A stretch of DNA of 64,000 bases from an uncultured Candidatus Saccharibacteria bacterium (GTDB lineage Bacteria > Patescibacteriota > Minisyncoccia > Phycocordibacterales > UBA2100): contig CAYTFU010000002.1 of the NCBI GenBank assembly GCA_964437185.1, positions 41,296 through 105,295 on the forward strand, written 5' to 3'. Position numbers and translations under genes: made by a program. The notes beneath the pieces were generated by a model. It saw only the letters and a program-made list of their open reading frames with translations. It ran no database searches and was not told the DNA's origin. Below, piece by piece: positions 811-60,653 of the stretch (positions within the stretch are counted from its first letter, which is position 1; every line of letters begins with the position of its first letter).

Positions 811-822
811 CGCAAAAACCAC

Positions 823-1794
823 ATGATACGCGTCGTAAACATCGTTTTAGCTGTCTTCGCGATTGTGCTGACTGCGGCCATTGTTTTGTCAGGTAACACA
901 AAGAATCCCTCGTCACGCATTCTTGCCGGCACGGGCGCAGAATCAAAACGAGCGTTAGTGAATGTTATAAACGATGTTGGTGCGACTAATGCATGGCGCA
1001 TCTTGAAGGAAGCTTATTTGACCGATGGTCAGTTGCAGCATAGAAACATCGACCCGCATACTCTGGCTCATCAGATAGGCCGTGCGATATACAAAGAGCG
1101 TGGGATCAACGGACTCAGTATTTGTGATGATGCGTTTACCGGCGGGTGCTTTCATGGCGTCGTGGAGGAGGTTTTAATACTAGATGGGGTTGGCGCATCT
1201 GCTCGGATCGGCAGACTTTGTTCAACGCTCGATAATCCGTCTGGCTGCGCGCACGGCGCGGGCCACGGTCTAAACGAGGCCTCCGAGAGAAATTTATCGA
1301 ATGCCATGCGCAGCTGCGCTACGTTTCCCGAATCTCTGAAACCAGACTGTATCGAGGGCCTTCTTATGGACAATCTTTGGTCCTGGAAAGAAGCTGACGT
1401 CCGAAGGAAGTTGTGGGCGATTTGCGAAGGTCTGTCTCCGGAGTATCACGTTGCGTGCGCGTCTAGTTTGGGCAACTACTTTAGCGAGCATAAAAGCGTA
1501 GACGTGCATAGTTATGAACCAAGCACAATTGCCGCTGTTTGTGGTACGGCGCCAACCGAAGAGATGTCTAATCGATGCTTACTACGGCTCGGCCAAAGTA
1601 TTACGAGGCGAACCAATGGACACGTGGAGCAGATTATTCTTGAGTGCGGCCGATTGTTCACCGATCAGCAAGACGACTGCTTGAAGAACGCCGTTTCTTT
1701 CGCCATCAGTGCAAAATACATCGATCCCTCGATTTCGCGACTCGACATTTGCGCAAGATATTTTGGAGAAAAAACTCAGCATTGCCCGATCTAA
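823..1794 (+). CDS. hypothetical N-terminally membrane-anchored Cys-rich protein
   Basis: 323 aa ORF with one N-terminal hydrophobic helix (VVNIVLAVFAIVLTAAIVL) and many Cys. No recognisable catalytic motif. Confidence 0.5.
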   Translation: MIRVVNIVLAVFAIVLTAAIVLSGNTKNPSSRILAGTGAESKRALVNVINDVGATNAWRILKEAYLTDGQLQHRNIDPHTLAHQIGRAIYKERGINGLSICDDAFTGGCFHGVVEEVLILDGVGASARIGRLCSTLDNPSGCAHGAGHGLNEASERNLSNAMRSCATFPESLKPDCIEGLLMDNLWSWKEADVRRKLWAICEGLSPEYHVACASSLGNYFSEHKSVDVHSYEPSTIAAVCGTAPTEEMSNRCLLRLGQSITRRTNGHVEQIILECGRLFTDQQDDCLKNAVSFAISAKYIDPSISRLDICARYFGEKTQHCPI

Positions 1795-1830
1795 GGTCGG
1801 TGGCGGACGAGGCGCTTTTGACATGATAGT

Positions 1831-2742
1831 ATGAATAGCATGATTAAATTCACACTCGGATTTTTAGCAGCGGCTGTGCTTGCAATTGGCGCTTATTTCT
1901 ACCTCACTCCTCGGCAAGCTGCGCCTCCGCAACCAGATACGGCATCCGAAAATTCTTTGGCTGGAACGACGGCTACGAATACACAGCCAGTCGCGGATTC
2001 CACAAAAACCGTCATCGGTACGTCAGTAAAGGGAAATGAGATCGTGGCGTACCATTTCGGCGAGGGTTCAAAGAACGTGTTGTTTGTCGGCGGCATACAT
2101 GGCGGATATGAGTGGAACACTGCGCTCCTCGCGTACGAAATCATGGACGAACTGAAGAAAAATCCAAACATCATTCCTACAGGGGTGCGCGTAACGATCA
2201 TACCGGTACTCAATCCCGACGGTCTTGCGATTGTCGCGGGTACGTCGAGTCGATTTGCCGCATCTGATGTTTCTACCTCAAAAAGCGTGCAGGTATCGGG
2301 TCGCTTCAATGCAAACACAGTAGACCTGAATAGAAACTTCGATTGCGACTGGAAGGAGGCCGGGACTTGGCAAAACACCCGCGTAAGTGGTGGTAAATCG
2401 GCGTTCTCAGAACCCGAAAGCATCGCAATGAAATCATACATAGAATCGCTGAAGCCAGATGCTGTTGTCGTGTGGTACAGCGCTGCAGGCGGTGTGTATT
2501 CTTCAAGTTGTCACGACGGCGTATTGCCGCAAACGAGCGCGCTTACCGCCCTGTATGCAAAAGCCGCGTCGTATCCCGCGCATGAGGTGTTCAATTACTA
2601 CGACATCACGGGCGACATGGTAAATTGGCTCGCAAAAATAAAGATCCCCGCTATTAGCGTGCTCCTCACAAATCACACCGACATTGAGTTGAGCAAGAAT
2701 CGTGCGGGCGTACAAGCCGTCTTAGAGTACATTTCGAAATAA
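1831..2742 (+). CDS. M14-like zinc carboxypeptidase paralog, probably catalytically dead
   Basis: GGIHGGYEWN, NPDG and DLNRNFD motifs. Positions aligned to the third Zn ligand and the catalytic Glu read Y216 (VWYS) and L278 (ISVLL). Confidence 0.7.
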   Translation: MNSMIKFTLGFLAAAVLAIGAYFYLTPRQAAPPQPDTASENSLAGTTATNTQPVADSTKTVIGTSVKGNEIVAYHFGEGSKNVLFVGGIHGGYEWNTALLAYEIMDELKKNPNIIPTGVRVTIIPVLNPDGLAIVAGTSSRFAASDVSTSKSVQVSGRFNANTVDLNRNFDCDWKEAGTWQNTRVSGGKSAFSEPESIAMKSYIESLKPDAVVVWYSAAGGVYSSSCHDGVLPQTSALTALYAKAASYPAHEVFNYYDITGDMVNWLAKIKIPAISVLLTNHTDIELSKNRAGVQAVLEYISK

Positions 2743-2743
2743 G

Positions 2744-3619
2744 ATGCGCTTTCTTTCGTCTCGACAACTCGTTATTTCTGTAGCGGTGATTGCGTTGCTC
2801 GCGACGTACGGAGCCTACTTCTATTCACGTGAAGAGCCTCCAGAAGTGCAACAAGAGGTCGTCGCACCTGCTCCCGCCTACACGCGTGCGGTTATCGGCC
2901 ACTCCGTGGAAGGTCGCGCTATCGAAGCGTTTACATACGGCGCCGGTGCGAGGCAACTTTTGTTTGTCGGCGGTATGCATGGGGGATACGAGTGGAACAG
3001 CGTGCTTCTTGCGTACGAAATGATGGATTACCTCGTGCAACATCCGGATTTCGTCCCGAGTGGCATGAGCGTTACCATAATCCCTGTAGCCAATCCCGAT
3101 GGTCTCTATAGAATCGTGAACAAAGAGGGGAGGTTTACGCTCACCGACGTTCCATCGGACACAGATCAATCGCCCGGCCGATTCAATGCCCATGAAGTCG
3201 ATCTCAATCGCAACTTCGACTGCAAATGGCAGCCTGAGAGCATGTGGAAGAGTCGCACTGTGAGCGGCGGCACAGCGGCATTTTCTGAGCCTGAGAGCCG
3301 CGCCCTTCGCGATTTTGTTCTCACGCACAAACCTGTCGCCGTCGTCTTTTGGCACAGTAAGGCAAATGCTGTGTATGCGTCGGAGTGCGAGAATGGGATT
3401 TTGCCCATCACGCGCGACATTATGAGCGCCTACGCAGGCGCCGCTGGTTATCCTGCAGTCGATAGCTTCGATAGCTACTCGGTGACTGGAGACGCAGAAG
3501 GGTGGCTCGCTTCCATTGCGATACCAGCGATAACGGTCGAGCTTAAGACACACGAAGATATCGAGTGGGACAAAAATCTTTTGGGAGTGACTGCGCTCGT
3601 CAAATATTTTTCAAAGTAA
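2744..3619 (+). CDS. M14-like zinc carboxypeptidase (MpaA / gamma-D-Glu-mDAP peptidase-like)
   Basis: Tandem paralog of 1831-2742. GGMHGGYEWN, NPDG and DLNRNFD motifs, and it retains FWHS (His) and ITVEL (Glu). Confidence 0.75.
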   Translation: MRFLSSRQLVISVAVIALLATYGAYFYSREEPPEVQQEVVAPAPAYTRAVIGHSVEGRAIEAFTYGAGARQLLFVGGMHGGYEWNSVLLAYEMMDYLVQHPDFVPSGMSVTIIPVANPDGLYRIVNKEGRFTLTDVPSDTDQSPGRFNAHEVDLNRNFDCKWQPESMWKSRTVSGGTAAFSEPESRALRDFVLTHKPVAVVFWHSKANAVYASECENGILPITRDIMSAYAGAAGYPAVDSFDSYSVTGDAEGWLASIAIPAITVELKTHEDIEWDKNLLGVTALVKYFSK

Positions 3620-3653
3620 TCTTACAGTGAGTGTGACGTGCTATAAATAGCGT

Positions 3654-4604
3654 ATGGACCAGGTAGGCGCTCCTCATCCAAATGCAGTCCACAAAAAACA
3701 TCTGTGGATGTTTGGCGCCATACTAGCGATCGTTGTCGGCGGTGCATTTGTGTTTACGGGGGTGAAAATCGTATCGCTCAACACAGAAATTGCGCGTCTC
3801 ACGTCGGATATCGCCTCAACCACTTCGGTGCTCTACGGGACAGCGGGCACGCTCTCCAAAAATATTTCCGATTTGAGTACCGAAACAAAGGGGATATCGC
3901 AAGATCTCTCGAATACCAAAGAAAATATTGCAACGGTCAAAGATCAGGTAGGCGGCGTGCAGCAGACGCTCGGCTCCGTTTCGGGCACCGTTTCTACACT
4001 TCAAAAGCTTTCTACTATTGATGCTGAGCTTTTGAAAAAATACTCAAAGGTGTATTTTCTCAACGAAAATTACACGCCCGCCCACCTCTCTGTACTGCCG
4101 CAAGACATAATCTACAGTAATACTCGTCCCGAAAGCTTTCTTACCGAAGCCGCGCCTGCACTCGTCCGAATGATGACGGCGGCGAAGGCCGATGGCGTCT
4201 CAATGTATGTATTTTCTGCGTTTCGATCGTTCGCAAAGCAGCAGACTCTAAAATCTCAATACACATTCACCTATGGCGCCGGCACCGCGAGCACTTTTTC
4301 GGCAGATCAGGGCTACTCTGAACACCAACTCGGGACAACGGTCGATGTCATCGCGCCCGGCCTCGGTGGAGAATTGACCGTCGCTTTTGAAAAAACCCCG
4401 GCGTTTGCATGGCTTATGGCCAATGCGCACAAATTCGGATTTCACCTCTCCTATCCGCGCAACAATACATACTACGTGTACGAGCCCTGGCACTGGCGCT
4501 ACGTGGGCGTAAAACTTGCCACGTACCTGCACGAACAAAACCTCAATTTCTACGACATGGATCAACGCACGATTGATACTTATCTGGCAAATCTATTCGA
4601 CTGA
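3654..4604 (+). CDS. VanY/M15B-type D-alanyl-D-alanine carboxypeptidase, membrane anchored with coiled-coil spacer
   Basis: SAFRSFAKQ, SEHQLGTTVD and EPWHWRYVG motifs, plus an N-terminal TM helix. Confidence 0.8.
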   Translation: MDQVGAPHPNAVHKKHLWMFGAILAIVVGGAFVFTGVKIVSLNTEIARLTSDIASTTSVLYGTAGTLSKNISDLSTETKGISQDLSNTKENIATVKDQVGGVQQTLGSVSGTVSTLQKLSTIDAELLKKYSKVYFLNENYTPAHLSVLPQDIIYSNTRPESFLTEAAPALVRMMTAAKADGVSMYVFSAFRSFAKQQTLKSQYTFTYGAGTASTFSADQGYSEHQLGTTVDVIAPGLGGELTVAFEKTPAFAWLMANAHKFGFHLSYPRNNTYYVYEPWHWRYVGVKLATYLHEQNLNFYDMDQRTIDTYLANLFD

Positions 4605-4658
4605 CGAGTACTTTACTGCTGTCCATTAGCGAATCTACCGTATAGTTTCCACATTCTT

Positions 4659-5660
4659 GTGAATACTCAAAATCACGGTATTCTGAGTAGTGTGTTTCCG
4701 CATACACGGCTGCGCCGTTTGAGAAAAACTGAGGCACTGCGAACGCTAACCCGGGAGCAGAGGCTTTCTATCGACGATTTGATTTATCCGATTTTCGTCG
4801 AGGAAAATATACAAGCCCCTATTCCAGTAGAGACGATGCCTGGCGTGTTTCGAATTCCGGAGAGAAATCTAGACGATGAGGTGCGAGCGATCGCATCAGA
4901 TGGAGTGAAAGCAATTATGATGTTCGGTGTCTCGCACAAAAAAGACCCCACGGGAAGCGATTCTTTGAGTCAAAGCGGTCTCATGGCGCGCATGATTAGG
5001 TGCGCAAAAAAAGCGGCTCCAGAGATGATCGTGATTTCCGACAATTGCTTTTGCGAATACACTGATCATGGACATTGCGGCGTAGTTCGTGACGGTTATG
5101 TGGACAACGACCTTTCGATTAAAAACCTAGCGCGTCAGACTGTCGTAGCTGTCGAAGCTGGCGCCGACATGGTGGCGCCCTCTTCGATGTTGGACGGCCA
5201 AGTACAGGCGATTCGGCAGACGCTCGACGCAGCGGGCCATGGCGACATCCCGATTATGGCGTATTCTACGAAATTCGCTTCCTGCTTTTACGGTCCTTTT
5301 CGCAACGCCGCGGGATCAACACTACAAGGCGACCGAAAAACCTATCAGATGGATCCCTCGAACACTCGAGAGGCAATACGAGAATCCTTGCTAGATGAAA
5401 GCGAGGGCGCGGACATTCTTATGGTAAAGCCTGCACTTCCGTATCTCGACATTCTGTCGAAACTGCGAAAACGAAGCCTATTACCAATAGCCGCTTATCA
5501 AGTAAGTGGTGAATACGCAATGATCAAATTTGCTGCCCAAGCTGGTGCCATTGATGAGCGGCGCGCGGTACTTGAAACGCTCGGGGCGATACAAAGAGCT
5601 GGTGCCGATATTATTCTCACATATTTTGCTCGTAGTCTCGCTCGAGAAGGTATCATATGA
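4659..5660 (+). CDS. hemB: porphobilinogen synthase (ALA dehydratase)
   Basis: RLRRLRK N-terminus, [18 protein letters not shown] and [10 protein letters not shown] motifs. GTG start; an alternative GTG lies at 4692. Confidence 0.92.
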
Positions 5661-5706
5661 ATAATGCCCGTTATGTACTGAATGATCGAAGGGAAAAGCA
5701 GCAATA

Positions 5707-6612
5707 ATGAAAACAATTCTGATTAAAATTGGTTCTCGTGGAAGCGAACTTGCACTTAAGCAAACAGATATCGTATTCGCGGCGCTTAAGGCAGCGGACC
5801 CATCTGTTTCCGTCGAGGTGCACGTAGTCCAAACACGCGGCGACGTTGACCAGCAACCGATTCCTCTCGACACCATAGGCAAGGGGTGGTTCACGAGAGA
5901 AATAGAAGATGAGCTTTTGCGGGGTGAAATCGACATCGCTGTGCATAGTCTCAAAGATATGGCGGAAGGCATGCCGCCGGGCCTCATGATTGGAGCATAT
6001 CTTCCGCGTGAAGACGCGCGCGATGTTCTTATTACAAAAAACGGCGTGTCATATCAGGAATTAAAGCGGGGAGCAATAATCGGTACCGACAGTTCGCGCA
6101 GGCAGGTACAAATGCTTGCCCTCCGACCTGACGCACGGATGAAAAGCATACGCGGGAATGTGCCGACGCGTCTCCAAAAGCTACAATCTGAAGAATACGA
6201 CGCAATTATTCTTGCTGCAGCGGGTTTAAAACGTCTTGGAATGGAAAAAAAAATCACTCATTATTTTGCCTTGACGGATATCATTCCAGCGCCCGGGCAG
6301 GGAATTCTTGCCGTACAAACACGAAGGGACGACACCGAGTTGGAACAAATACTCGCGCGAATCAACGATCTTGAGGCGGCGCAAGCGGCAACTTTGGAGA
6401 GATTGTTCTCGCGTACCGTCGGAGGCGGATGCAAAGCTCCGACAGGAGCCTACGCCGTAAAGGGACCAGAAGGATGGACATTGACGGCAATGATTGCTGC
6501 AGCAAATGGCCGAATCATCCGGGGAGAAATGAGTACCCAATTAGATGGCGATTTTCAGATCGGCCAACAGCTCGCGAAGAGTCTTCTTATTACCCGTGAT
6601 GCGGAAAAATAA
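5707..6612 (+). CDS. hemC: hydroxymethylbilane synthase (porphobilinogen deaminase)
   Basis: IGSRGSELALKQT, AVHSLKD, RGNVPTRL and GGGCKAP motifs. Confidence 0.92.
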   Translation: MKTILIKIGSRGSELALKQTDIVFAALKAADPSVSVEVHVVQTRGDVDQQPIPLDTIGKGWFTREIEDELLRGEIDIAVHSLKDMAEGMPPGLMIGAYLPREDARDVLITKNGVSYQELKRGAIIGTDSSRRQVQMLALRPDARMKSIRGNVPTRLQKLQSEEYDAIILAAAGLKRLGMEKKITHYFALTDIIPAPGQGILAVQTRRDDTELEQILARINDLEAAQAATLERLFSRTVGGGCKAPTGAYAVKGPEGWTLTAMIAAANGRIIRGEMSTQLDGDFQIGQQLAKSLLITRDAEK

Positions 6613-6613
6613 A

Positions 6614-7159
6614 ATGGAAATAGGCATAGATATTAAGGCGCTGTCGCTGTCGCGAAGCACAATTAGCGTTCTTCGCAATATTGCTCGATACGACCTCATT
6701 GTTTTTACAAGCAAAAATGCACAAAACTTCTTCAAGAGAGCACTCTCGCGGCTTCAAATAAAGCTGCCGAGGAGCAGCGGGATTGTGCGAGTGGGGCCCC
6801 GAAATGATCTTCTTAAACTTGCCGTGCGGGGGAAGCGGATACTATTTCCGCGCTCCGCTCTAGCTCCGCATGACATTATCAGAGGCTTGCGGTCTAAAGG
6901 ATGCTCGGTACGTGTCATTACTCTATACACAGCACATGGCACAAAATTATCCAAAAAACAAAGACAATTGATACTTAGCGGGAACATTGAGAGATTGTAT
7001 TTCAAAAGCCCTTCTGGCGTACGAGGACTTTTGCAGCAAATGCGGGGACGAAATAAAAAGTTAGTACTTTCAATTCTTGCAGAATGCCTCGGCAAAACTA
7101 CCGCAAGTGCGGCAAAAGCGGAGGGCTTTAAAAAAGTGGTAGTTGCAGGCATACTGTAA
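6614..7159 (+). CDS. hemD: uroporphyrinogen-III synthase, short form
   Basis: IVFTSKNAQNFF and FKSPSGVRGLL (the two FTSxxAV-type motifs) plus RILFPRS. Only 181 aa, so it lacks about 60 N-terminal residues of typical HemD. ATG lies 1 nt after the hemC stop. Confidence 0.7.
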   Translation: MEIGIDIKALSLSRSTISVLRNIARYDLIVFTSKNAQNFFKRALSRLQIKLPRSSGIVRVGPRNDLLKLAVRGKRILFPRSALAPHDIIRGLRSKGCSVRVITLYTAHGTKLSKKQRQLILSGNIERLYFKSPSGVRGLLQQMRGRNKKLVLSILAECLGKTTASAAKAEGFKKVVVAGIL

Positions 7160-7164
7160 GACCT

Positions 7165-7821
7165 ATGCGATACCACAGCTATATTTTTTTCGATGTATGC
7201 CAGAGCTTCCCTGTACCGTCGGCTGCAAAAATCAATACGTACAAAAAGGGTTTTGCTGCGATAGTGGAAAACAATGTCGATGTTGGTGTGCGAGCCTACG
7301 GGACACTAGCACTTAAATCCGGTACGCGATTTATGTTACACATGAATGCAGGTTCTCCCGATGCGATACAGCTTCTTACGCGAAACTTATTGCACTCCGA
7401 GCTCGGGAGGCTTCTCACGATACGCTACACGCTCATGGGCATAACCCGATCATCGCAGTACAATCCAAAATCGGCCCCAAAAGAAAGCGTGCCAGATATG
7501 CCTCATCGCTATCTTGTGGTGTATCCATTCACGAAAACTATCGAATGGTATTTAATGCCGTACGATGAGCGACGGGGTATCATGAAGTCCCACGTTGATG
7601 TCGGCCGCAAATTTAGCAAGAACATATCGCAGCTTCTCTTGTACTCATACGGCATAGACGATCATGAATTCATCGTGTCATACCAAATGAGTGATCTGGA
7701 AGAATTCCAAACCCTCGTGATGGAAATGCGTGAGACCGAAAGCCGTCGTCACACGAAAAATGACCTGCCAATATTCACCTGTATACACATGTCACTTCCC
7801 GAGGCACTCGACATGGTATGA
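7165..7821 (+). CDS. chdC: chlorite dismutase-family coproheme decarboxylase (HemQ/ChdC)
   Basis: YLVVYPFTKTIEWYLMPYDERRGIMKSH...GIDDHEFIVSY pattern typical of HemQ; sits inside the heme cluster. Confidence 0.8.
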   Translation: MRYHSYIFFDVCQSFPVPSAAKINTYKKGFAAIVENNVDVGVRAYGTLALKSGTRFMLHMNAGSPDAIQLLTRNLLHSELGRLLTIRYTLMGITRSSQYNPKSAPKESVPDMPHRYLVVYPFTKTIEWYLMPYDERRGIMKSHVDVGRKFSKNISQLLLYSYGIDDHEFIVSYQMSDLEEFQTLVMEMRETESRRHTKNDLPIFTCIHMSLPEALDMV

Positions 7822-8825
7822 ATGATACATTTCTCCGTGCGGCAAGAGGAGAAAAAACGGAGCAAATCCCGATTTGGTTTATGCGCCAGGCTGGACGATC
7901 GCTTCCTGGCTACCGCAAACTTCGCGAGAAATACAGCGTGCTGGAGCTCGCGCAGACGCCGGAACTCGCAGCGCAGGTCTCAATCGAGCCAGTAGAGCGA
8001 CTGGGAGTGGACGCCGCGATACTCTTTGCAGACATTATGCTTCTGCCTTTGGCGCTCGGTGTAAAACTCGAAATTGTGGATTCTGTGGGCCCTGTTATAG
8101 ACTCACCGATCGAGAGCAGAGCAGATATAGAGCGCCTCCTACCTTTTAAGAAAAGCAATATAACGTACCTGGGAGACACCATTAGACTCCTGCGGCAACG
8201 TCTTGATGTGCCGGTCATCGGTTTTTCTGGCGCTCCTTTCACACTGGCCTCCTACCTCATAGAAGGTAGGCCGACGCGCGACTGGAAGAAGACCAAGAAA
8301 TTCATGCTCGAGGAGCCGGAGTTGTGGGAGCTTTTAATGCGAAAACTTTCGGATTCAGTCATTGGCTACCTAGACGTACAGATACAGGCAGGAGCGCAGG
8401 CAGTGCAACTTTTCGACAGTTGGGCGGGATGTCTTTCGCCAACTGACTACAGGACGCACGTGCTACCGCATGCTCGGAAGATATTTTCCGCCCTGAAAGA
8501 ACGTAAGGTGCCGCGGATACACTTCGGCACGGATACCGGCGCCATGCTGGAGGATTTCGCCGATGTGGACTGCGAAGTCATCGGTGTGGATTGGCGAGTA
8601 GATCTCTCAAAAGCGAGAGAATTGGTCGGCAAGAAAGCGCTGCAAGGCAATCTCGACCCGGCAGTGCTTCTGTGCGATTGGTCTGTAGTCGAAAAGAAGG
8701 TAGACGAGATGCTTTTCAACCTTGGGAACGCGAAAGGTTACATATTCAATCTAGGGCACGGTGTATTGCCTCAAACCGACGACAAGCAGATCAAGCGGCT
8801 TGTCGAATACGTGCATGGTAAATAA
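7818..8825 (+). CDS. hemE: uroporphyrinogen decarboxylase
   Basis: PIWFMRQAGRSLPGY and ILFADI motifs with full-length similarity. ATGA overlap with chdC. Confidence 0.93.
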   Translation: MNDTFLRAARGEKTEQIPIWFMRQAGRSLPGYRKLREKYSVLELAQTPELAAQVSIEPVERLGVDAAILFADIMLLPLALGVKLEIVDSVGPVIDSPIESRADIERLLPFKKSNITYLGDTIRLLRQRLDVPVIGFSGAPFTLASYLIEGRPTRDWKKTKKFMLEEPELWELLMRKLSDSVIGYLDVQIQAGAQAVQLFDSWAGCLSPTDYRTHVLPHARKIFSALKERKVPRIHFGTDTGAMLEDFADVDCEVIGVDWRVDLSKARELVGKKALQGNLDPAVLLCDWSVVEKKVDEMLFNLGNAKGYIFNLGHGVLPQTDDKQIKRLVEYVHGK

Positions 8826-9732
8826 GATCGGCGTGGTTCTGATGACGTACGGTTCCGCTAATACCTCGGCCGGAGTCGAAGCGTATTTCAGGCATATCTA
8901 CGAGAATCCTTCGCCGGAAGCTATTGCAGATTTCAAGAATCGTTATGATCTGGTAGGCGGCTCGCCTCTGGTACGCATCACCAAGCATCAGGCCGTGCTT
9001 CTCCAGAAAAAACTCGGTAAAAAGTACGTAGTGCGCTCCGGGATGCGGCACTCGAAGCCCTTTATCGCCGATGCGGTTGCCAGTCTGAAAAAAGCCAATG
9101 CAAATGAGATTCGCAGCATAATCCTTTCTCCGCAATTCTCATCTTTTATTATGGAGGGCTACAAGAAAGACTTTACGGAGGCCGCAAGAGCAAATGGATT
9201 TACAAACTACATGATCGCAGGGCCATGGCCTGCTGATGAACATTTTGTCAAACTTTTCGCAAAGCGCATAAAGGTAAAGCTCTCCAAACTCGGCAAAGAT
9301 ACACCAGTCGTGTTTACGACTCACAGCTTGCCCCAACGAGTCGTCGATACAGATCCGAGTTATTTAAAACAATTAGACCAGACTATCGTCGCAGTGAGAA
9401 AGCAATTGCCAAAAATAAATTGGTACCAGGGATACCAGAGCGCGGGCCACACGCCCGAGGAATGGCTCAAGCCCGACCTCACCGACATTCTTGCCGACCT
9501 CGCCAAAAAAAGACAAGACAAAGTCCTGATAGTACCGATACAGTTTCTCTCCGACCATTTGGAGATCCTCTATGATCTCGATATTGCTGCACGCGAGCAG
9601 TGCAATGAATTCGGAATAGACTACCATCGTATCGAGTTACCGAATACCGATCCGCTGTTCATACGATCGCTTGAAGAAATCACAAAAAAAGCTGCTCCGC
9701 GATTGCGTGGTGCGCGAGGACGACGCATATAA
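8815..9732 (+). CDS. hemH: ferrochelatase (probably coproporphyrin ferrochelatase)
   Basis: IGVVLMTYGS N-terminus, TTHSLP and IQFLSDHLEILYDLD motifs. Start chosen at the internal ATG overlapping the hemE stop. Confidence 0.88.
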   Translation: MVNKIGVVLMTYGSANTSAGVEAYFRHIYENPSPEAIADFKNRYDLVGGSPLVRITKHQAVLLQKKLGKKYVVRSGMRHSKPFIADAVASLKKANANEIRSIILSPQFSSFIMEGYKKDFTEAARANGFTNYMIAGPWPADEHFVKLFAKRIKVKLSKLGKDTPVVFTTHSLPQRVVDTDPSYLKQLDQTIVAVRKQLPKINWYQGYQSAGHTPEEWLKPDLTDILADLAKKRQDKVLIVPIQFLSDHLEILYDLDIAAREQCNEFGIDYHRIELPNTDPLFIRSLEEITKKAAPRLRGARGRRI

Positions 9733-9810
9733 TGCTCGAGTCCGTGCCGATTATCGTCGGCGAGCGCGATTTGAAACTGCAGGGCTTCTTTGCTCTAAAT
9801 GGCTACGATA

Positions 9811-11094
9811 CTAGATTCGCAGCAGTTTCTGCAAGGCGGCTTTGTGGAGGTGGGGGCCGATGATAGCGAGGTTAAGTGAGGAAGTTTTGAGGATGTCATT
9901 CGCGACGCGCGCTATGTCGTCGGATGTTACTTTGTCCACGCCCTTCAATATTTCATCAAGAGGGCGTATGCGACCGAGGTTTATGAGCGAAGTGGTGGCA
10001 TTTTGAGCAATTTCATCGCTCGTCTCGAGCGAGAGCGTCATGGTGCCCTTAATGTACGACTTGGCTTTGCGAAGCTCCTCCGCCGAAACTTTCCTCTTTT
10101 TGATTTTTCGGAATTCGGCGAGAATCGTTGAAATGGCTTTCTCCAGTTTGCCGTGCTCCACGCCCGCCTGAACGACGAAATACCCTGTATCGGGGTATTT
10201 GTCTGCCCACGCGTGCACGGAGTAGGCGAGGCCGCGTTTTTCACGAACTTCAAGAAAAAGTCGGCTGCTCATGCCGCCACCGAGAATCGTAGAAAGAACC
10301 GCGAGCGCGTATTCATCCTTGTGTGCGTACGGATACGCGGGCACTCCGACCATTAGTTGCGTCTGATCGGTTTTCTTCTCCTTAATCGCGATGCGTGGCG
10401 CAGTCTGTGTGCCAGAGTACGCGGCAAATGTCGGCGCTGGTGCAGGCTTTAGTTGACCGAATTCCTTCTTTATTTTCGCCAAAACCTTTGCGCTGGAAAA
10501 ATTGCCGGCGATACAGACCACCGTGTTTGCGGATACGTAATTGCGTTTCAGATAATCAGCAAAATCTTTGCGTGAAAAGGATCGAATATTTTCCTTGGGT
10601 CCGAGAATAGTCCGACCAAGCGCGTGATTACCAAAAATAAGAGCGTCGAATACGTTGTCGACCGTGCGCATCGGTATATCTTCATACATGTCGATTTCTT
10701 GGATGATTGCGCCACGCTCTTTCTTGATTTCAGCAGCAGGCAGAGTGGAATTGAGAAAAATGTCACCGATCACATCGAGCGCCGTATCGACGTATTGTCG
10801 ACTCACCTTCGCGAAATAGGCAGTGCGATCTTTGGAGGTAAATGCGTTATATACAGCGCCCACGCCATCAAGCTCTTCGCTTACAGCGCGCGCCGACGGG
10901 CGCTTCTTTGTGCCTTTAAAAAACATGTGCTCAAGAAAGTGTGCGAGGCCGTTTTCGCGCTCGTTTTCGTACCGAGAGCCGGTGCCGCTCATCACGACGA
11001 CGGTGGCGGTAGCGCTATCAGGCATCGGCGCAAGGACTACCCTGAGGCCATTTGGCAACGTGTGAAGGTCGTATTTCACCCCGTTAGAAGCCAT
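9811..11094 (-). CDS. M16 (pitrilysin/insulinase) family zinc peptidase
   Basis: HFLEHMFFKGT (HxxEH) motif in a 427 aa ORF with two-domain M16 architecture. Confidence 0.85.
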   Translation of the reverse strand: MASNGVKYDLHTLPNGLRVVLAPMPDSATATVVVMSGTGSRYENERENGLAHFLEHMFFKGTKKRPSARAVSEELDGVGAVYNAFTSKDRTAYFAKVSRQYVDTALDVIGDIFLNSTLPAAEIKKERGAIIQEIDMYEDIPMRTVDNVFDALIFGNHALGRTILGPKENIRSFSRKDFADYLKRNYVSANTVVCIAGNFSSAKVLAKIKKEFGQLKPAPAPTFAAYSGTQTAPRIAIKEKKTDQTQLMVGVPAYPYAHKDEYALAVLSTILGGGMSSRLFLEVREKRGLAYSVHAWADKYPDTGYFVVQAGVEHGKLEKAISTILAEFRKIKKRKVSAEELRKAKSYIKGTMTLSLETSDEIAQNATTSLINLGRIRPLDEILKGVDKVTSDDIARVANDILKTSSLNLAIIGPHLHKAALQKLLRI

Positions 11095-24259: not shown

Positions 24260-24667
24260 ATGGTAGCCAATTTTACACTCACAGAAACTCAACGATCGGC
24301 TATTGAAAAGCTTGGCGTTGTCCTTTTGTATCTACATGGCTCGGTGGCTGCTGGCACCGCGCGCGCAAACAGTGATGTAGACATTGCTGTTTTATTTGAA
24401 ACTACGCCGCGGGACTCGATTAGCGCGACGACCGCGGTCACGGAGGCTCTACGCGGATTGGTACCGCAACGTGAGATGGATATCGCCATACTCAATGAAG
24501 CAAATCCGCTGCTGAAACAAATAGTCGCCTCGACCGGCAATCTCCTGTACGCGCGTACAACTGACGACGCATTGAAATTTGAGCTGCGCGCCATGCACGA
24601 TTACGAATATTCTCGCCATGTCGTCCGTCTGGGGCAGGAACTTATTTTGCGCAACGTGAGCGTATGA
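24260..24667 (+). CDS. minimal nucleotidyltransferase (MNT-type antitoxin)
   Basis: LYLHGSVAAGTARANSDVDIAVLF (GSx10-ish DxD pol-beta NTase motif). ATGA overlap with the downstream HEPN gene. Confidence 0.8.
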   Translation: MVANFTLTETQRSAIEKLGVVLLYLHGSVAAGTARANSDVDIAVLFETTPRDSISATTAVTEALRGLVPQREMDIAILNEANPLLKQIVASTGNLLYARTTDDALKFELRAMHDYEYSRHVVRLGQELILRNVSV

Positions 24668-25095
24668 CCGAATTTTCTCGAGAATTACTCATGGGCAAAT
24701 TGGTGCAGTGCAGCGAGGCACTCACCGATCTGCAGCGATACCGCGAGGTCGGAACTTTGGATTACCTGCGCGACCACCAGGACATATATTACGCTGTATG
24801 TTATCGGTTTATCGGTGGCATCGAAGCCTTATTTGATGCTGGCCAAATAATTCTGGCGAGCCACGGACAGCATGCAGCCGGTGACGGCGACATACCCGTA
24901 CTTCTTGGGCGAAGGAAAATTATATCTGACGAGCTGGCTAGTGCATTCACCAATATGTACGGTTTTCGCAATCGGCTGGTGCACGCCTACGGCACGCTCG
25001 ATGATTCCAAGGTGGCCGAGTACCTTCAGAGGCATCTTGTAGATATCGAGGAGCTTATCAGTGTATTTCGAGACACGGTGACAAGCTCGGAGTGA
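24664..25095 (+). CDS. HEPN/DUF86 domain protein (HepT-like toxin)
   Basis: RNRLVHAYGTLD (Rx4-6H HEPN motif) near the C-terminus; paired with MNT. Confidence 0.8.
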   Translation: MTEFSRELLMGKLVQCSEALTDLQRYREVGTLDYLRDHQDIYYAVCYRFIGGIEALFDAGQIILASHGQHAAGDGDIPVLLGRRKIISDELASAFTNMYGFRNRLVHAYGTLDDSKVAEYLQRHLVDIEELISVFRDTVTSSE

Positions 25096-25128
25096 AGGCG
25101 AATGAGGATCAGATAGTAAATAGTCATT

Positions 25129-25608
25129 ATGGGGGAGATCGAGATACAGTCCTTGGTGGCTGAGGTCGATCGGGAGGCGGTAGAGTTTTGCCGCGAGATT
25201 TATTCTGAAATGGGATGGCCTGAACATGCCCTAGGTTCAAGCGTCGCGGCACTATTCAGTGAACCTGGTGATGCTTTTGTGACCATCAAGCAGGCCGGAA
25301 AAATTATCGGTACCGGTGGTTTTCTACGACTCTCAAAAGAAGAAGCGGTATTAAAAAGGTTTTACCTCGCAAAACATGTACGCGGTAGTGATCTCGCGCC
25401 GCGATTATTTGCCGATCTCGTAGATAGGGCGCGAGTCATTGGGTACTCCGTGCTCCTTGTGGATGTTTCTTCAACCAACGTACGTGCGATACGATTCTAT
25501 GAGAAGGAGGGTATGAAGGAGTTTTTTGGTGTCTCACCCCACCCGCGCTGGGAAGGATCCTCACCCGAAAGGCAGAAAACTGACCGATATTTTCGCTTAA
25601 AACTCTAA
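25129..25608 (+). CDS. GNAT family N-acetyltransferase
   Basis: 159 aa with the pattern LAKHVRGSDLAPRLFADLVDRARVIGYSVLLVDVSSTNVRAIRFYEKEGM (acetyl-CoA binding motif A region). Confidence 0.75.
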   Translation: MGEIEIQSLVAEVDREAVEFCREIYSEMGWPEHALGSSVAALFSEPGDAFVTIKQAGKIIGTGGFLRLSKEEAVLKRFYLAKHVRGSDLAPRLFADLVDRARVIGYSVLLVDVSSTNVRAIRFYEKEGMKEFFGVSPHPRWEGSSPERQKTDRYFRLKL

Positions 25609-25774
25609 TTCAACCTGAGGTGATCCATGCTTCATTTTCACATTGTCGCCCGCAAGAGAGCGGAGTAGTTCCGTCAGAGAAACAGAGAATTTACCACAGC
25701 CCTCTCTTGCCTTATCGACAGCAAGGTTTAGAGTACACCCTATGGGTGCGTTTTCATGGAGACTTCTCGAGGAC

Positions 25775-25834
25775 GCACTAAGACGGTGGTGGTATGTCGC
25801 AATCTTCACTTCGCTTGCGTTTGCAAGAAGCTGA
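25775..25834 (+). pseudogene. orphan 3' fragment of a diverged allele of the 23728-24216 membrane-protein gene
   Basis: Encodes ALRRWWYVAIFTSLAFARS-stop versus ALRLWWYVAIFTSLAFARS-stop. Of 10 nt differences, 9 are synonymous or stop-to-stop. Confidence 0.6.
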
Positions 25835-25856
25835 GAAAATCAGCGCCTCCATACCT

Positions 25857-25884
25857 TTGCACTGGCTGATTTACGTGTTATAAT
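25857..25884 (+). promoter_or_regulatory. strong sigma70-like promoter, possibly giving a leaderless transcript
   Basis: TTGCAC, 16 nt spacer, (TGt)TATAAT. The ATG of the DMT transporter lies only 6 nt after the -10 box. Confidence 0.45.
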
Positions 25885-25890
25885 CTGAAT

Positions 25891-26787
25891 ATGCATGCTG
25901 AGCTTATCGTCGCAGTACTCGCAGGAATGGGCGGCATGTTCGGATGGGGATTTTCAGAATTTGGAGCAAAAAAATCCGTTGATGACATAGGAGCAATTTC
26001 CAGCCTCGTGTGGGCGCATGTCTTTGGCACGGTGATTCTTTTTGCGCTGCTTATAGCCCGGTCCTCCTTCACGCATGAATCCGTTTATTTCCCGACAGAT
26101 TCCGGTGTATGGCTGGGTCTTATTTTTTTTGGAGCTCTCCAAGCTGCCGTATATTATTTTGCTTATAAAGGTTTCGGAGAGGGTGAGGTTTCCATTTTGA
26201 GTCCTATTTTTGCATCGTTTGCCGGTCTCGTCGCACTGCTATCTGTCTTGGTATTTGGGGAGATTTTGAGTGTAGGTATGGTGCCCGCTTTAGTAATTAT
26301 TTTTGGGGGCGTGATACTGATGAATCTTGATCTAGGAAGATTCCGAACGGCGGGTGTTCGTATCAAAGCTGTCGCCGGATTGAAAGCAATCCTAGTAGCT
26401 ACGGCACTTGCGACGATTTGGACCTTGGGGTGGAACACATTTTCGGGAACTCAGGACTGGATAGTTTACACGACCTTCATGTTTGTATTTATGACACTTG
26501 CAGCATTTGGTATGGCACGGTTGGCAAAAGTTAATTTAATGGAGGTTAAACCACGAGCATGGAAATTCTTATGGCTCATAGCTGTGGGAGAGGTTGTTGC
26601 GTATTTGGCAATAACGTTGGGTTATGCAAATACCTCGTATACCAGTGTCGTTGCAATATTGAGCGGTGCCTCTTCTTTACCGACCATACTGCTCGCTCGT
26701 ATCTTTCTAAAGGAACAAATGACGAAGACGCAAGCGGTTAGCTGCGTCGTCATCATCGCAGGTATCGTCATCTTGGCTGTATCATAA
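25891..26787 (+). CDS. EamA/DMT superfamily transporter
   Basis: 298 aa with about 10 TM helices in two EamA-like halves. Confidence 0.8.
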   Translation: MHAELIVAVLAGMGGMFGWGFSEFGAKKSVDDIGAISSLVWAHVFGTVILFALLIARSSFTHESVYFPTDSGVWLGLIFFGALQAAVYYFAYKGFGEGEVSILSPIFASFAGLVALLSVLVFGEILSVGMVPALVIIFGGVILMNLDLGRFRTAGVRIKAVAGLKAILVATALATIWTLGWNTFSGTQDWIVYTTFMFVFMTLAAFGMARLAKVNLMEVKPRAWKFLWLIAVGEVVAYLAITLGYANTSYTSVVAILSGASSLPTILLARIFLKEQMTKTQAVSCVVIIAGIVILAVS

Positions 26788-26789
26788 AT

Positions 26790-28247
26790 ATGCAGCCAAA
26801 ACACCCAAAATCCCATCTTACGCACGCGCTTAATCACGTGACGCATAAAGCGATTCGCTGGTGCACCCCCTCGATTGATCTGACATTCGCTCAGGTTAAA
26901 AACCCCTATGCGAGCGACACGTCGACATCTTTCGAATCGCTGGGGTATCCTTCTGACCCATCCGGCGTTTTTAAAAAAGTGTACGAGCATGCTGCTAGCG
27001 CATATGGGGCGCAGCACACTCTGTTCTCCGTGAATGGCACTACCGGTAGCAATTTCATGGTTTTGCGAGCTTTAAGCAAACAAATTCCAAATCTTCGGAT
27101 GCTCGCCCAAAGAAATGTGCATAGATCAATTGTCGCGGCATGTGAGGATTATGGAATAAATCTTTTCTTTCTGGAACCCAATATCGATCAAACTCACCAA
27201 CTTTTTCTTCCAAACACGGTAGAGCAAATATGTGAGGGGATTGAGCGGATCAAGCCGCAAGTGCTGCTTCTTACTAATCCTACCTACGAGGGACTTTGTC
27301 TCGACTTGAAACACGTCATTGCGACTGTGCGGGAAAAATCCCAAGAAATGATAATGTACGTCGATGAGGCGTGGGGCGCTCACTTGCATTTTTCCGATAA
27401 GCTGCCCATCTCTGCTATGGATGCCGGAGCGGACATTTGTGTTCAAAGTACTCATAAGCAAGGCGGGTCTCTTCAGCAGTCAGGCATGATTCATTGGAGA
27501 GAAGGGAGAATTAACAACGACCTGCTCGTCGAGTCCTATCGAAGCCTAGGAACCAGTAGTCCGTCCTACTTGCTTCTTGCGTCTTTGGATGCCGCGAGGG
27601 AAACTATGCAAAAAAAGGGCAAGAAAAAGATAGACCACATACTGACAACCGCAAAGCATTTGTCCGACGAGACAAGTAAAATCTCCGGTTTGCATGTGAT
27701 CTCAGTAGACGACCTGACGACAAACTATTCATCAGTGCGCGATAGAGATAATTCAAAAGTAATTGTTGACGTTACCGGTACGGGGTTTAACGGATACGAT
27801 GTGGCAAATATTTTGGACAGTAAGTATAAAATTTTAGTTGAATCGTACAACCTAAAAACGATTCTTTTTCTTGTCCCATTTAGGGCAACGGCCGCTGATG
27901 TCCATACGACGGTAGCGGCCCTTAAAGAAATAGTTCGTAAACCTAAAAAGAACGGCGTCGCGATGGAATACAATTTAATAATCCCGACAAATATTCCTAA
28001 AATTTTGGACTTACATGAAATGACAAAACTGCAGGTCGATCAAATTGAGCGCGTGCCGTTGGACAGGGCTGTCGGACGAATAGCGGCAGAGCATATTACT
28101 CCATTTCCACCAGGTATTCCAATCACTATTAAGGGCGAGGAATTGACGAGGGAAATTATCGAATATTATATTGCATTAAAGGCGTACCCCAATGTCCACA
28201 TAGCGGCGCGCGACAAATCAGTAGAATATGTATGGGTTGTAAAGTAG
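26790..28247 (+). CDS. PLP-dependent Orn/Lys/Arg decarboxylase (fold type I)
   Basis: SVNGTTGSNFMV and STHKQGGSLQQSGMIH (PLP-Lys region). Starts 2 nt after the transporter stop. Confidence 0.8.
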   Translation: MQPKHPKSHLTHALNHVTHKAIRWCTPSIDLTFAQVKNPYASDTSTSFESLGYPSDPSGVFKKVYEHAASAYGAQHTLFSVNGTTGSNFMVLRALSKQIPNLRMLAQRNVHRSIVAACEDYGINLFFLEPNIDQTHQLFLPNTVEQICEGIERIKPQVLLLTNPTYEGLCLDLKHVIATVREKSQEMIMYVDEAWGAHLHFSDKLPISAMDAGADICVQSTHKQGGSLQQSGMIHWREGRINNDLLVESYRSLGTSSPSYLLLASLDAARETMQKKGKKKIDHILTTAKHLSDETSKISGLHVISVDDLTTNYSSVRDRDNSKVIVDVTGTGFNGYDVANILDSKYKILVESYNLKTILFLVPFRATAADVHTTVAALKEIVRKPKKNGVAMEYNLIIPTNIPKILDLHEMTKLQVDQIERVPLDRAVGRIAAEHITPFPPGIPITIKGEELTREIIEYYIALKAYPNVHIAARDKSVEYVWVVK

Positions 28248-29806: not shown

Positions 29807-30055
29807 ATGTTGACGAACAAAGATATAGACAAGATGATAAAGGTTTTCGCTACTAAGGAAGACATCCGGAGCGTCACCGATAGACTCGACAGGCTGGAAT
29901 CCTTGGTTCGCGGTCTTCTAACTGGGGTGGACAAACTCGCGACGAGTGTCGACAAATTGCTTTTGGAGTATGCGGCAGTCAGCGAACAACTTACGCGCCA
30001 CGAGAGGTGGATCAAACAAATCGCAAAAAAGTCTGGCGTGATGCTCGCGGACTAG
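29807..30055 (+). CDS. small coiled-coil protein, family member A
   Basis: 82 aa. The C-terminal EYAAVSEQLTRHERWIKQIAKKSGVMLAD aligns with the ORF at 60378-60653. Confidence 0.65.
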   Translation: MLTNKDIDKMIKVFATKEDIRSVTDRLDRLESLVRGLLTGVDKLATSVDKLLLEYAAVSEQLTRHERWIKQIAKKSGVMLAD

Positions 30056-51600: not shown

Positions 51601-51986
51601 TCACACGTAATCACTTCTCTCGACCAATCAAAGGATGTGCCCATGGAGCGGATCTGCTTCTTCATGAACTCGATATTCCTGTACGTCCATGTACGCGGAT
51701 TTATGTTGTTCTTTATGGCAGCGTTTTCGGCGGGCAAACCAAACGCATCGAAGCCGATCGGATAAAGCACATTTTTCCCCTGCATCCGCTCCGCGCGCGC
51801 AAAAATATCTGGTACAGCAAATGCGTACCAGTGACCGACGTGCAGATTTCCCGAGGGGTATGGAAACTCGACGAGTAGGTAGGAATTTTTCTTCCCTTTT
51901 ACTGAATCTCGGGTCCTGTAAAGTTTCGATTTATCCCATCGCGCTTGCCACTTTCGTTCAATTGCCCGATGATCATATTTTTTCAT
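48615..51986 (-). CDS. leuS: leucyl-tRNA synthetase carrying two inserted hydrolase domains (Ser-hydrolase and Nudix)
   Basis: PYPSGNLHVGH, Zn finger CERCD, editing TTRADT and GTGAIMAVPAHDERD, KMSKS and the C-terminal tRNA-binding domain are all present. 1123 aa because of inserts at about aa 236-416 and 545-700. Confidence 0.93.
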   Translation of the reverse strand: MKKYDHRAIERKWQARWDKSKLYRTRDSVKGKKNSYLLVEFPYPSGNLHVGHWYAFAVPDIFARAERMQGKNVLYPIGFDAFGLPAENAAIKNNINPRTWTYRNIEFMKKQIRSMGTSFDWSREVITCDPAYYKWTQWLFLEFFKKGLAYRKETAVNWCPKDKTVLANEQVVSGRCERCDSEVVQRKMLQWNIKITDYADRLIDDLDGLDWPEQIKESQRNWIGRSEGAEIDFVLDLGQKYKFVIFHGFGGTPDAPRWKWVKAELEKMGHEVVIPRLPNTDNPTEREQVEYAISATTYDERTVIVGHSLGAVLALKVAEQLTKPVARLVTIGGFVDTKFKDKKRLFEKTWSWKFDSEAIKRNVGSFTVLHDPRDHAISDQQAQALADLLGTRVELGVSNATHFTGDTEPDVLMWLRPTMRVFTTRADTLFGATYLVLAPEHRWVSDFIRSGLCANADEIKTYVEASKRKTELERMADQKEKTGVELKGVRAINPATGEKIPVWIADYVLAHYGTGAIMAVPAHDERDHEFATKFKLPIKEVVEPLSLFKGGLDAVREGEPLERRKSVFAIVKHWSEDKYLGVHFKPTKVNECVSGGIEEGEDAVEAGIREIREETGYRSAKLVRSLGGHIWGKYYSVEKKVNRLVDFTPLLYSLENGEQDIVSEHEKSRHDVGWYGPEEFSRFINRPDVMIAWKRVTGYQPYTEEGILVDSGEFTGLMNREAIGRITAKYGRVKTTYKLRDWIVSRQRYWGVPIPIIHCAVCGPVAVPNKDLPVKLPEVKDYLPEGSGKSPLAKATKWVKVKCPQCKKPAERETDTFDTFIDSSWYFLRYCDPKNRSKFADPKKLAKWMPIDLYSGGAEHTTMHVLYSRFWQKAMYDLGLVKDKEPYTRRMNRSLIMGPDGQKMSKSRGNVIDPDAVVAQLGSDTVRMYLAFIGPYNEVSSYPWNPDGVVGVRRFLERAWKIQFMVAKGEVDALQNVLHKAIKKVGEDIAALKFNTAISQLMILLNAIESEGKIGAVQWDTFLKILAPFAPHMAEELWSERHKSSVHLQTWPVYKAEYLKSETMTIAVQVNGKTRAQIDVASDADKTAIEGEARKAVSERVAGREIVRTILVPGRLVNFVVKE

Positions 51987-54617: not shown

Positions 54618-55211
54618 CTATCGGCCGAGACGACCGAGCTCCTGGACTTCAGCGAGCCAACGAGCCTTCCGAGAAGCTGGAATATTTTCTGAAGGGCCAA
54701 ACCAGGTAGATCGGACGGAAAATCCCGCAAACCAAAGAATCCCCCACCGTAGCTGCGCGTTTACATTGCCCGGCAGAAAACGAACAAGCCAGGGGGGCGT
54801 ACCACTCGTGAGAATAGTCCGAGCCGTCTTGCCTCTGAAAAGACGATGCCAAAAAATTGTTCGTCGACCCGCCGGCGTTTTGATGTATCGAAATGCCGAT
54901 CCGGGAAGCCACGCGCGGTCAAACAATCCCTTCAAGAGTGCAGGCATCCCCACCCACCAGACAGGGTAAATGATTACAAAGTGATCCGCCTCGACAAGAA
55001 GACGTTGAAATTTTTGCAGATCAGGTTCGAGCGCTTGCATCGCACGGTAACCCTTGTGCAGTACGGGATCAAACTGCATATCGCCGAGGTTGAGTCGATT
55101 TACCGTGTGGCCCGATTTTAGAGCGGCCGCACAATACTCATTCGCAATTTCTCCGCAAAATCCAGACGAATCCGAGTGCCCGAGAAGCACGAATATTTTC
55201 TTATGATTCAT
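54618..55211 (-). CDS. flavodoxin-like fold NAD(P)H oxidoreductase (Flavodoxin_2 / KefG-like)
   Basis: KIFVLLGHSDSSGFCGEIA N-terminus and YPVWWVGMPALLKG motif. Confidence 0.7.
   Translation of the reverse strand: MNHKKIFVLLGHSDSSGFCGEIANEYCAAALKSGHTVNRLNLGDMQFDPVLHKGYRAMQALEPDLQKFQRLLVEADHFVIIYPVWWVGMPALLKGLFDRAWLPGSAFRYIKTPAGRRTIFWHRLFRGKTARTILTSGTPPWLVRFLPGNVNAQLRWGILWFAGFSVRSTWFGPSENIPASRKARWLAEVQELGRLGR

Positions 55212-59001: not shown

Positions 59002-60653
<1,652 letters not shown>

Follow-up and report, generated by a model that had tools for sequence, protein, structure and literature searches.

Can a member of the Candidate Phyla Radiation (CPR, Patescibacteria) make heme, given that a large survey scored the Patescibacteria uniformly as lacking heme synthesis genes (10.1101/2021.01.11.426183)? 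This question was raised by a stretch of 64,000 nucleotides, positions 41,296 to 105,295 of contig CAYTFU010000002.1 (assembly GCA_964437185.1). The whole stretch is referred to as the window, and coordinates are given in its numbering unless another locus is named. The window carries six co-oriented heme genes on the + strand, abutting or overlapping, which span positions 4659–9732. We consider it probable that this operon would convert 5-aminolevulinate (ALA) to heme b via the coproporphyrin-dependent route in a Kaiserbacteria-like member of the Paceibacteria. No earlier description of a CPR heme cluster was found in the papers that were searched. The pathway itself is known, and its occurrence in CPR appears to be new and essentially undescribed, the variant features being a minimal uroporphyrinogen-III synthase (UROS), a divergent ChdC, and the lack of linked CgoX and ALA synthesis.

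The cluster was confirmed as genuine, with all six genes at the following positions. The first, hemB, encoding porphobilinogen synthase (4659–5660, 333 aa), contained a Zn-type Cys motif and matched ALAD with 451 bits and PRK13384 with 548 bits (cut-off 507). It was followed after 46 nt by hemC, encoding hydroxymethylbilane synthase (5707–6612, 301 aa), which scored 324 bits with TIGR00212 (cut-off 164) and, in Pfam, 256 bits with Porphobil_deam and 40 bits with its C-terminal domain. The third gene, hemD, encoding a miniaturised UROS (6599–7159), could begin at ATG 6599, giving 186 aa and a 14 nt overlap with hemC, or at ATG 6614, the gene callers' start, giving 181 aa and a spacing of 1 nt. 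The HEM4 match of HemD was 93 bits against a Pfam gathering cut-off of 27.5. A gap of 5 nt separated hemD from the gene of a ChdC (HemQ)-type coproheme decarboxylase (chdC, 7165–7821, 218 aa; Chlor_dismutase 162 bits). The latter overlapped by 4 nt with hemE, encoding uroporphyrinogen decarboxylase (7818–8825, 335 aa; URO-D 413 bits; TIGR01464 416 bits, cut-off 303), and hemE overlapped by 11 nt with cpfC (hemH), encoding a coproporphyrin-type ferrochelatase (8815–9732, 305 aa, in a reading frame open from 8761; Ferrochelatase 219 bits; TIGR00109 188 bits, cut-off 125). The Pfam gathering cut-offs were far exceeded for all six proteins, and the NCBIfam equivalog cut-offs were exceeded for the products of hemB, hemC, hemE and hemH. 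Several sequencing runs yielded at least 8 contigs that contain this cluster, its ChdC being identical and its flanking genes unchanged, and therefore it is real and not chimeric. A promoter and terminator scan of the sequence gave no signal exceeding shuffled expectation.

The host of the operon was placed by its RpoA, which was 82–87% identical to members of more than 120 protein clusters; all named ones were Kaiserbacteria, Paceibacterota, Parcubacteria group or Patescibacteria group. Since all of the named matches were CPR, the CPR affiliation supposed in the first-pass annotation of the window, made by a model from the letters, was right, and the window reads as part of a Kaiserbacteria-like Paceibacteria member. 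The placement rests on this RpoA search; the flanks of the GTDB loci described below shared too few genes for taxonomy. The window was also syntenic with a CPR contig from Hainich groundwater (L176). Besides RpoA it encodes ribosomal proteins, DnaK/DnaJ/GrpE, several tRNA synthetases, MraY/FtsW/MurG and a full F1Fo ATPase. No 16S rRNA, tRNA or any Rfam match was found in the 64 kb.

The branch of heme synthesis was indicated by the ferrochelatase and the ChdC-type protein. The best PDB matches of the former were the CpfC enzymes of Bacillus subtilis and Listeria with 169–171 bits, compared with ~70 bits for the protoporphyrin ferrochelatases of human and yeast. Its Tyr12 was equivalent to Tyr13 of BsCpfC, with 'MTYGS' aligned to 'MAYGT', and the HSLP and DHLE motifs were kept. 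The best PDB matches of ChdC were the coproheme decarboxylases of Streptomyces and Corynebacterium. Y120 aligned with the catalytic Tyr (CdChdC Y135 / LmChdC Y147) and H143 with the proximal His (H158 / H174), and Y120, H143 and Q156 were invariant across 28 clade members. Q156 stands at +13 from the proximal His, which, mapped by published residue spacing, we take to be the site of the catalytic Arg of chlorite dismutases (Cld; NdCld R173 / DaCld R183) and of a Gln in Firmicutes ChdC. The distal Arg of a chlorite dismutase was not found at that spacing, which is occupied by the clade-invariant Gln156. The AlphaFold 2 (AF2) model of ChdC (predicted local distance difference test score, pLDDT, of 86.8) exhibited the full two-domain fold, which by itself does not separate ChdC from Cld. 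Because of the active-site residues and the fixed position of the gene between hemD and hemE, the assignment of this Cld-family protein to the ChdC role, as a divergent subfamily, is well supported.

Compared with the coproporphyrin pathway of Firmicutes and Actinobacteria (hemE-hemY/cgoX-hemH/cpfC plus hemQ/chdC), the window thus shares UroD, a CpfC with the Tyr13 equivalent, a ChdC in which the catalytic Tyr and the proximal His are retained, and the order of the chemistry. It differs in that no CgoX lies in or near the CPR cluster and in its reduced CPR host genome. The 218-aa ChdC is nearest in sequence to the actinobacterial proteins, yet carries a putative distal Gln of Firmicutes type and varies at the position of the distal His, and the CPR genes formed a clade of their own that was nested in neither phylum, as judged from a neighbour-joining (NJ) tree only. 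The six gene identities and the coproporphyrin branch proposed in the first-pass annotation were borne out by the Pfam and NCBIfam matches, by Tyr12 of CpfC and by the Tyr and His of ChdC.

HemD departed from the usual architecture. Its best NCBIfam score was 50 bits, under the cut-off of 275, and the canonical ~240–260 aa architecture was absent. Among 1.8 billion representative proteins, 1274 relatives of HemD were found, including 4–5 clusters of 182–185 aa, a group of 204–216 aa, and canonical proteins of 245–270 aa. A similar size series was observed within the Paceibacteria, from 250 aa (L020) through 208–218 aa (L177, L011) to 183–186 aa in seven GTDB species. By alignment, the short HemD had lost ~30–35 N-terminal residues (the first beta-alpha unit), ~23–27 internal residues and ~15 C-terminal residues. 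The earlier remark that a 181-aa HemD was missing roughly its first 60 residues was hence right about the shortness but not about the place of the loss, which was split among three regions. The TS, FPRS, SPSG and IGPTT motifs and Tyr105 were kept in the alignment. The AF2 model of HemD had a pLDDT of 95.3, and its top 13 PDB matches in Foldseek were all UROS (TMq 0.47–0.74), with no others at E < 1e-5. HemD therefore resembles solved UROS (PDB 4es6, 3re1, 1jr2) in HEM4 membership, in the predicted two-domain alpha/beta fold and in the conserved loop motifs. It differs from canonical UROS in three places: the beta-alpha unit at the N-terminus is missing, the other domain is one alpha/beta unit smaller, and there is no C-terminal helix. 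The shortest solved UROS, that of H. pylori (3p9z), has 213 residues, against 181–186 aa here.

A longer HemD of 204 aa from position 6545 was considered and rejected, the added residues being unmatched in relatives, whose longest open reading frames (ORFs) are 183–186 aa. A frameshift or mis-called start was likewise rejected: the longest ORFs of the relatives leave no room for an N-terminal extension, and the alignment favoured ATG 6599 or 6614. A full-length hemD restored from another start or by correcting a frameshift, which had been offered as an alternative, was not found, the 183–186 aa form being conserved in relatives. The shortening thus appears to be genuine and conserved in the clade rather than an annotation artefact, and, judging from the model, the short HemD is probably compatible with function.

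It had also been supposed that such a cluster would be unexpected in a CPR genome. This did not hold for five of the six genes. In a scan of GTDB species genomes, the order hemC-hemD-chdC-hemE-hemH was found in 13 Paceibacteria-type loci (L009–L021), and the hemC of the window was 56–65% identical to that of 12 of these modules and 47% identical to that of L020. The order hemC-(hemD)-chdC-hemE-hemH was found at lower identity in Saccharimonadia (L023), Doudnabacteria (L071) and a complete Parcubacteria chromosome (L041). A second arrangement, with hemH(-) hemB(-) beside hemC hemD chdC hemE, occurred in Microgenomates, Levyibacteriota, two Saccharimonadales (L030, L036) and some doubtfully labelled metagenome-assembled genomes (MAGs). 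A search with ChdC gave 562 clusters at E ≤ 1e-5; the best 120 were 59–72% identical and mostly 218 aa long, and the named ones among them were Parcubacteria or Paceibacterota. In an NJ tree of ChdC and HemE, the CPR-type modules formed one group apart from those of Chloroflexota, Acetothermia, Gemmatimonadota and others, and the window was placed among the Paceibacteria. Because of the shared gene order and this grouping, the five-gene core is read as a recurrent CPR-type module and not as one recently brought in from Firmicutes or Actinobacteria. Its donor was likely another Paceibacteria-type genome.

Several further features of these loci were observed. In nine loci (L024, L025, L027–L031, L033 and L035) hemC and hemD formed a single ORF of 546–564 aa (for example L027:8332–9993), which may be a HemC-HemD fusion. 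In the second arrangement, a gene for an FTR1-like iron permease lay directly 3' of hemE (L024:11675–12493, L026:11679–12506, L027:11679–12509), suggesting a linked iron supply. A MASE1-HisKA-HATPase-receiver hybrid sensor kinase adjoined the module in ~11 loci (among them L016:13968–16046, L017:3716–5824 and L177:6243–8315) and may regulate it. CPR-type modules were also present in MAGs labelled Gammaproteobacteria, Methylomirabilota or Bacteroidetes (L024–L026, L028, L029, L032, L033, L037–L039). They grouped with those of Saccharimonadia and Microgenomates, and the labels or the binning of these MAGs may be wrong.

The sixth gene, hemB, had a different history. HemB was 66–73% identical to its nearest homologs, which were named Alphaproteobacteria/Pseudomonadota, Acetobacteraceae, Telmatospirillum and similar; in tblastn, its identity to HemB from CPR modules was only 51–55%. 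The nearest homologs were found in non-CPR contexts, beside CheA, EAL-domain proteins and class I lysyl-tRNA synthetase. A metagenome scan with HemB gave only high-GC non-CPR contigs without other heme genes, and no CPR context with hemA or hemL was recovered. In an NJ tree, HemB of the window fell in a proteobacterial group apart from the HemB of CPR modules, and hemB was found within 8–10 kb of none of 14 Paceibacteria-type modules. On this comparison hemB was acquired separately and is of alphaproteobacterial type. Because it is nearest to Alphaproteobacteria and far from CPR HemB, the operon is a mosaic of a CPR core and a captured proteobacterial hemB.

The surroundings of the operon suggested how it arrived. 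In L175 and L176, whose RpoA was 87% identical to that of the window, the gene of uracil-DNA glycosylase (UDG) abutted that of an M16 peptidase, followed by alanyl-tRNA synthetase (AlaRS), two hypothetical genes, IF1, S13, S11, S4 and RpoA. In the window, a lineage-specific insertion of ~9 kb (811–9810) separates the UDG gene (88–810, + strand) from the M16 peptidase gene (9811–11094, - strand) and the AlaRS gene behind it, both flanks being syntenic in the relatives. Collinearity in blastn stopped at position 773 and restarted at 9842. Besides the heme genes, the insertion carries a non-heme cargo on the + strand (823–4604, Pfam), which consists of a hypothetical protein of 323 aa (823–1794), two M14 carboxypeptidases (1831–2742 and 2744–3619) and a VanY D,D-carboxypeptidase (3654–4604). 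The heme genes and this cargo were absent from the locus in L175 and L176. The GC content at third codon positions (GC3) of hemB, hemC and hemD was 0.43–0.48, compared with 0.55–0.65 for housekeeping genes. No integrase among the annotated genes, no tRNA and no meaningful flanking repeats were found at the edges, the repeats there being short and at chance level. The ERZ accession of L175 adjoins those of the contigs of the window, so that both probably come from the same study; L176 is the Hainich contig.

From this comparison, gain in this lineage appears more likely than parallel loss, and the cluster is horizontally mobile within CPR. The horizontal acquisition suggested earlier is therefore supported, the ~9 kb insertion being missing from both of the nearest relatives that were compared. 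The core is CPR-type, and hemB alone is foreign. Whether relatives commonly carry the cluster, which had been named as a point that would overturn the first reading, received a divided answer: the core recurs across CPR, and the nearest relatives are without the cluster. The tandem M14 genes (1831–3619), which the insertion carries together with the heme genes, contained a 185 nt repeat at 70% identity. A second segment variable with respect to L176 was observed at 24260–28247, which had the lowest GC of the window (0.458) and encodes an MNT/HepT toxin-antitoxin pair, a GNAT acetyltransferase, an EamA transporter and an Orn/Lys/Arg decarboxylase.

A possible use for the heme was found in related loci. 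A cyoA-cyoB-cyoC-cyoD-cyoE operon lay within a few kb of the module in four of them: L012 (a relative), L018 (Paceibacterota), L036 (Saccharimonadales), and L177. L177 carries the closest ChdC homolog (72% identity), and L036 additionally encodes a type-2 NADH dehydrogenase. Operons for a cyoABCDE bo3-type quinol oxidase are known in Parcubacteria, Doudnabacteria and Saccharibacteria of soil and groundwater, and the heme source was not addressed in those reports (PMC8407418, PMC10413278, PMC12577380). The published operons belong to the same lineages and habitats, and in the four loci such operons are physically next to the module. The general statement that Patescibacteria are without respiratory chains, from which the first-pass annotation had started, was accordingly too strong.

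The following route is proposed for the window. HemB would convert ALA to porphobilinogen, HemC would convert porphobilinogen to hydroxymethylbilane, and the miniaturised HemD would close the latter to uroporphyrinogen III, which HemE would decarboxylate to coproporphyrinogen III. Coproporphyrinogen III may then be oxidised to coproporphyrin III, either by an unlinked CgoX or non-enzymatically in oxic habitats. The Bacillus-type CpfC would insert iron into coproporphyrin III, and the ChdC-type protein would decarboxylate the resulting coproheme to heme b using H2O2. ALA might be supplied by unlinked genes or taken up from the host or the environment, and the heme might be destined for hemoproteins, such as a heme-copper oxidase, whose genes lie in other parts of the genome.

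Several observations weigh against this route. First, hemA, hemL, CgoX and CgoN (DUF1444) were not found by tblastn and Pfam in ~78 kb (the 64 kb window and ~14 kb of flanks), in agreement with the earlier observation that the cluster and the window lack hemA, hemL and CgoX. A tblastn search of the window and flanks with the CgoX of L070 gave no match, and the ~10 kb upstream and ~2–3 kb downstream of the window contained no heme or respiratory genes. Within ±10 kb of chdC, HemA was linked in 22 non-CPR loci, HemL in 22 and CgoX in 8, compared with 0 for all three in ~20 CPR loci. The pathway may be incomplete. Second, unlike the published cyo operons, the window has the heme module without an oxidase; no heme-copper oxidase or other hemoprotein consumer was found in the 64 kb. 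Third, HemD is ~70 residues short of the canonical enzyme, and ChdC fell under the NCBIfam HemQ cut-offs (HemQ_actino, 119 against 235 bits; PRK12276, 64 against 253 bits). Where Corynebacterium ChdC has its distal His118, the ChdC of the window has Ser (position 103), and only about half of the clade members have His. Finally, the trees are NJ trees without support values, and L175 and L176 could have lost the insertion instead of its having been gained here.

Candidates for the missing oxidase were considered and rejected. As a CgoX, CgoN, HemG or HemJ substitute, the window offered no Amino_oxidase, DUF1444 or Flavodoxin_5 protein, and its unannotated ORFs had no Pfam match. The sole flavodoxin-like protein of the window (54618–55211, - strand, 197 aa), 45 kb away from the operon, was of Flavodoxin_2/FMN_red type. 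It resembles NAD(P)H:quinone reductases and is not HemG-type, and it is odd without a visible quinone-dependent enzyme. The recurrent neighbours of the CPR modules, namely the MASE1 hybrid kinase, the FTR1-like permease, ABC/MacB components and the cyo genes, included no plausible oxidase.

How the missing steps are supplied can be explained in two ways. It is plausible, if somewhat doubtful, that hemA, hemL and cgoX lie elsewhere in the genome, in which case this CPR organism would perform ordinary de novo coproporphyrin-dependent synthesis. Bacterial heme genes are often scattered, and the inspected ~78 kb belong to a genome likely near 1 Mb. In a published CPR MAG table, hemY (K00231) and cyoABCD were each scored in 2 of the 372 MAGs of one class, which hints that some of these genomes have CgoX. 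From the MAG counts this class is inferred to be Parcubacteria, and another class of the table, with hemY in 0 of 11 MAGs and cyo genes in 7 of 11, to be Saccharimonadia. A complete pathway is opposed by the large-scale survey cited at the outset, in which Patescibacteria were uniformly scored as being without the pathway, and by the difference in linkage between the ~20 CPR loci, with none, and the non-CPR loci, with about half.

The same lack of linkage is what the other explanation expects. According to it, the module is a deliberately partial 'completion' pathway of episymbionts without ALA synthesis (most Paceibacteria being also without porphobilinogen synthesis), for which an early precursor would be imported from the host and the oxidation would be driven by O2 without an enzyme. 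The gain of hemB would have shifted the entry point from porphobilinogen to ALA. We regard this as possible but on the whole unlikely. HemA, HemL and CgoX were in no CPR locus examined and are common beside chdC in other phyla, and hemB, missing near the 14 Paceibacteria-type modules, is here foreign and at the 5' end of the module. The tabulated class inferred to be Saccharimonadia combines frequent cyo genes with a zero count for hemY. The view was limited to ±10 kb per locus, so that unlinked genes are possible, and the few hemY genes in the class inferred to be Parcubacteria, equal in number to cyoABCD, hint at CgoX in some genomes. To our knowledge, porphobilinogen uptake is not an established bacterial trait, which also counts against a partial pathway. 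Autoxidation of coproporphyrinogen III in air is real and measurable (PMC10965808). A partial pathway of this kind would be comparable to that of heme scavengers such as Porphyromonas gingivalis (HemD/HemN/HemG/HemH, PMC13096392), likewise a reduced organism with late steps only and external precursors. The branch of P. gingivalis is the protoporphyrin one, whereas here it is the coproporphyrin one, with a long stretch from ALA or porphobilinogen to heme in one operon.

It appears quite improbable that the acquired cluster is decaying or without function, or that its Cld-family protein has another role (peroxidase or chlorite dismutase). The shortness of HemD, the scores of ChdC and HemD under the NCBIfam equivalog cut-offs and the Ser at position 103 of ChdC would fit such a history. 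Nevertheless, none of the six ORFs is disrupted and their sequences are the same in all samples, and HemD and ChdC are conserved in at least 13 species at 40–70% identity, with invariant active-site motifs and confident models. Moreover, chdC always stands between hemD and hemE, and position 156, at which chlorite dismutases have Arg by published numbering, is always Gln in the clade, matching the ChdC of Firmicutes. An assembly or binning artefact that joined a foreign heme cluster to a CPR contig, for which a slight dip of GC and GC3 across hemB-hemD might speak, is hardly credible, because the junctions UDG...VanY-hemB and hemH-M16-AlaRS were repeated in independent assemblies of several runs and 5 of the 6 genes are most similar to Paceibacteria homologs.

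Other features of the window and its population were noted. The leucyl-tRNA synthetase (48615–51986, - strand) has 1123 aa, far above the usual length, with weak Abhydrolase and NUDIX matches inside the synthetase domains. Two small paralogous ORFs (29807–30055, + strand, 82 aa; 60378–60653, - strand, 91 aa) have 46% identity to each other and no Pfam match. Their common C-terminal motif is EYAAV..QL.RHE.WIK.IAKKSGV, and the second ORF lies within the F1Fo operon, between atpG and atpD. In the assembly of another sample of the same population (L089:5262–7110), dnaK was present as two ORFs of 347 and 276 aa, owing to a variant with a frameshift or to an error of assembly.

Returning to the conversion of ALA to heme b by the operon, which we favour, its place in the biology of CPR can be outlined. 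A broader proposal, which we put forward only tentatively, is that CPR possess a coproporphyrin lineage of their own. This would be a five-gene 'completion' module with a UROS of ~185 aa and without CgoX or ALA synthesis, which would draw on host precursors and ambient O2/H2O2 and would deliver heme to a cyo-type oxidase, the alphaproteobacterial hemB being a one-step upstream extension in the present genome. Two biochemical questions are raised by the module: whether a UROS of ~185 aa is active, and whether the coproporphyrin route is workable when both CgoX and endogenous ALA are lacking. The presence/absence polymorphism of the insertion among populations apparently of one sampling campaign, as adjacent ERZ accessions indicate, together with the foreign hemB, points to piecemeal rebuilding of a pathway by gene transfer in reduced symbionts. 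The frequent position of the heme module beside cyoABCDE offers a concrete answer to how oxidase-bearing CPR obtain heme, and the module sets some CPR apart as likely users of oxygen and not strict fermenters.

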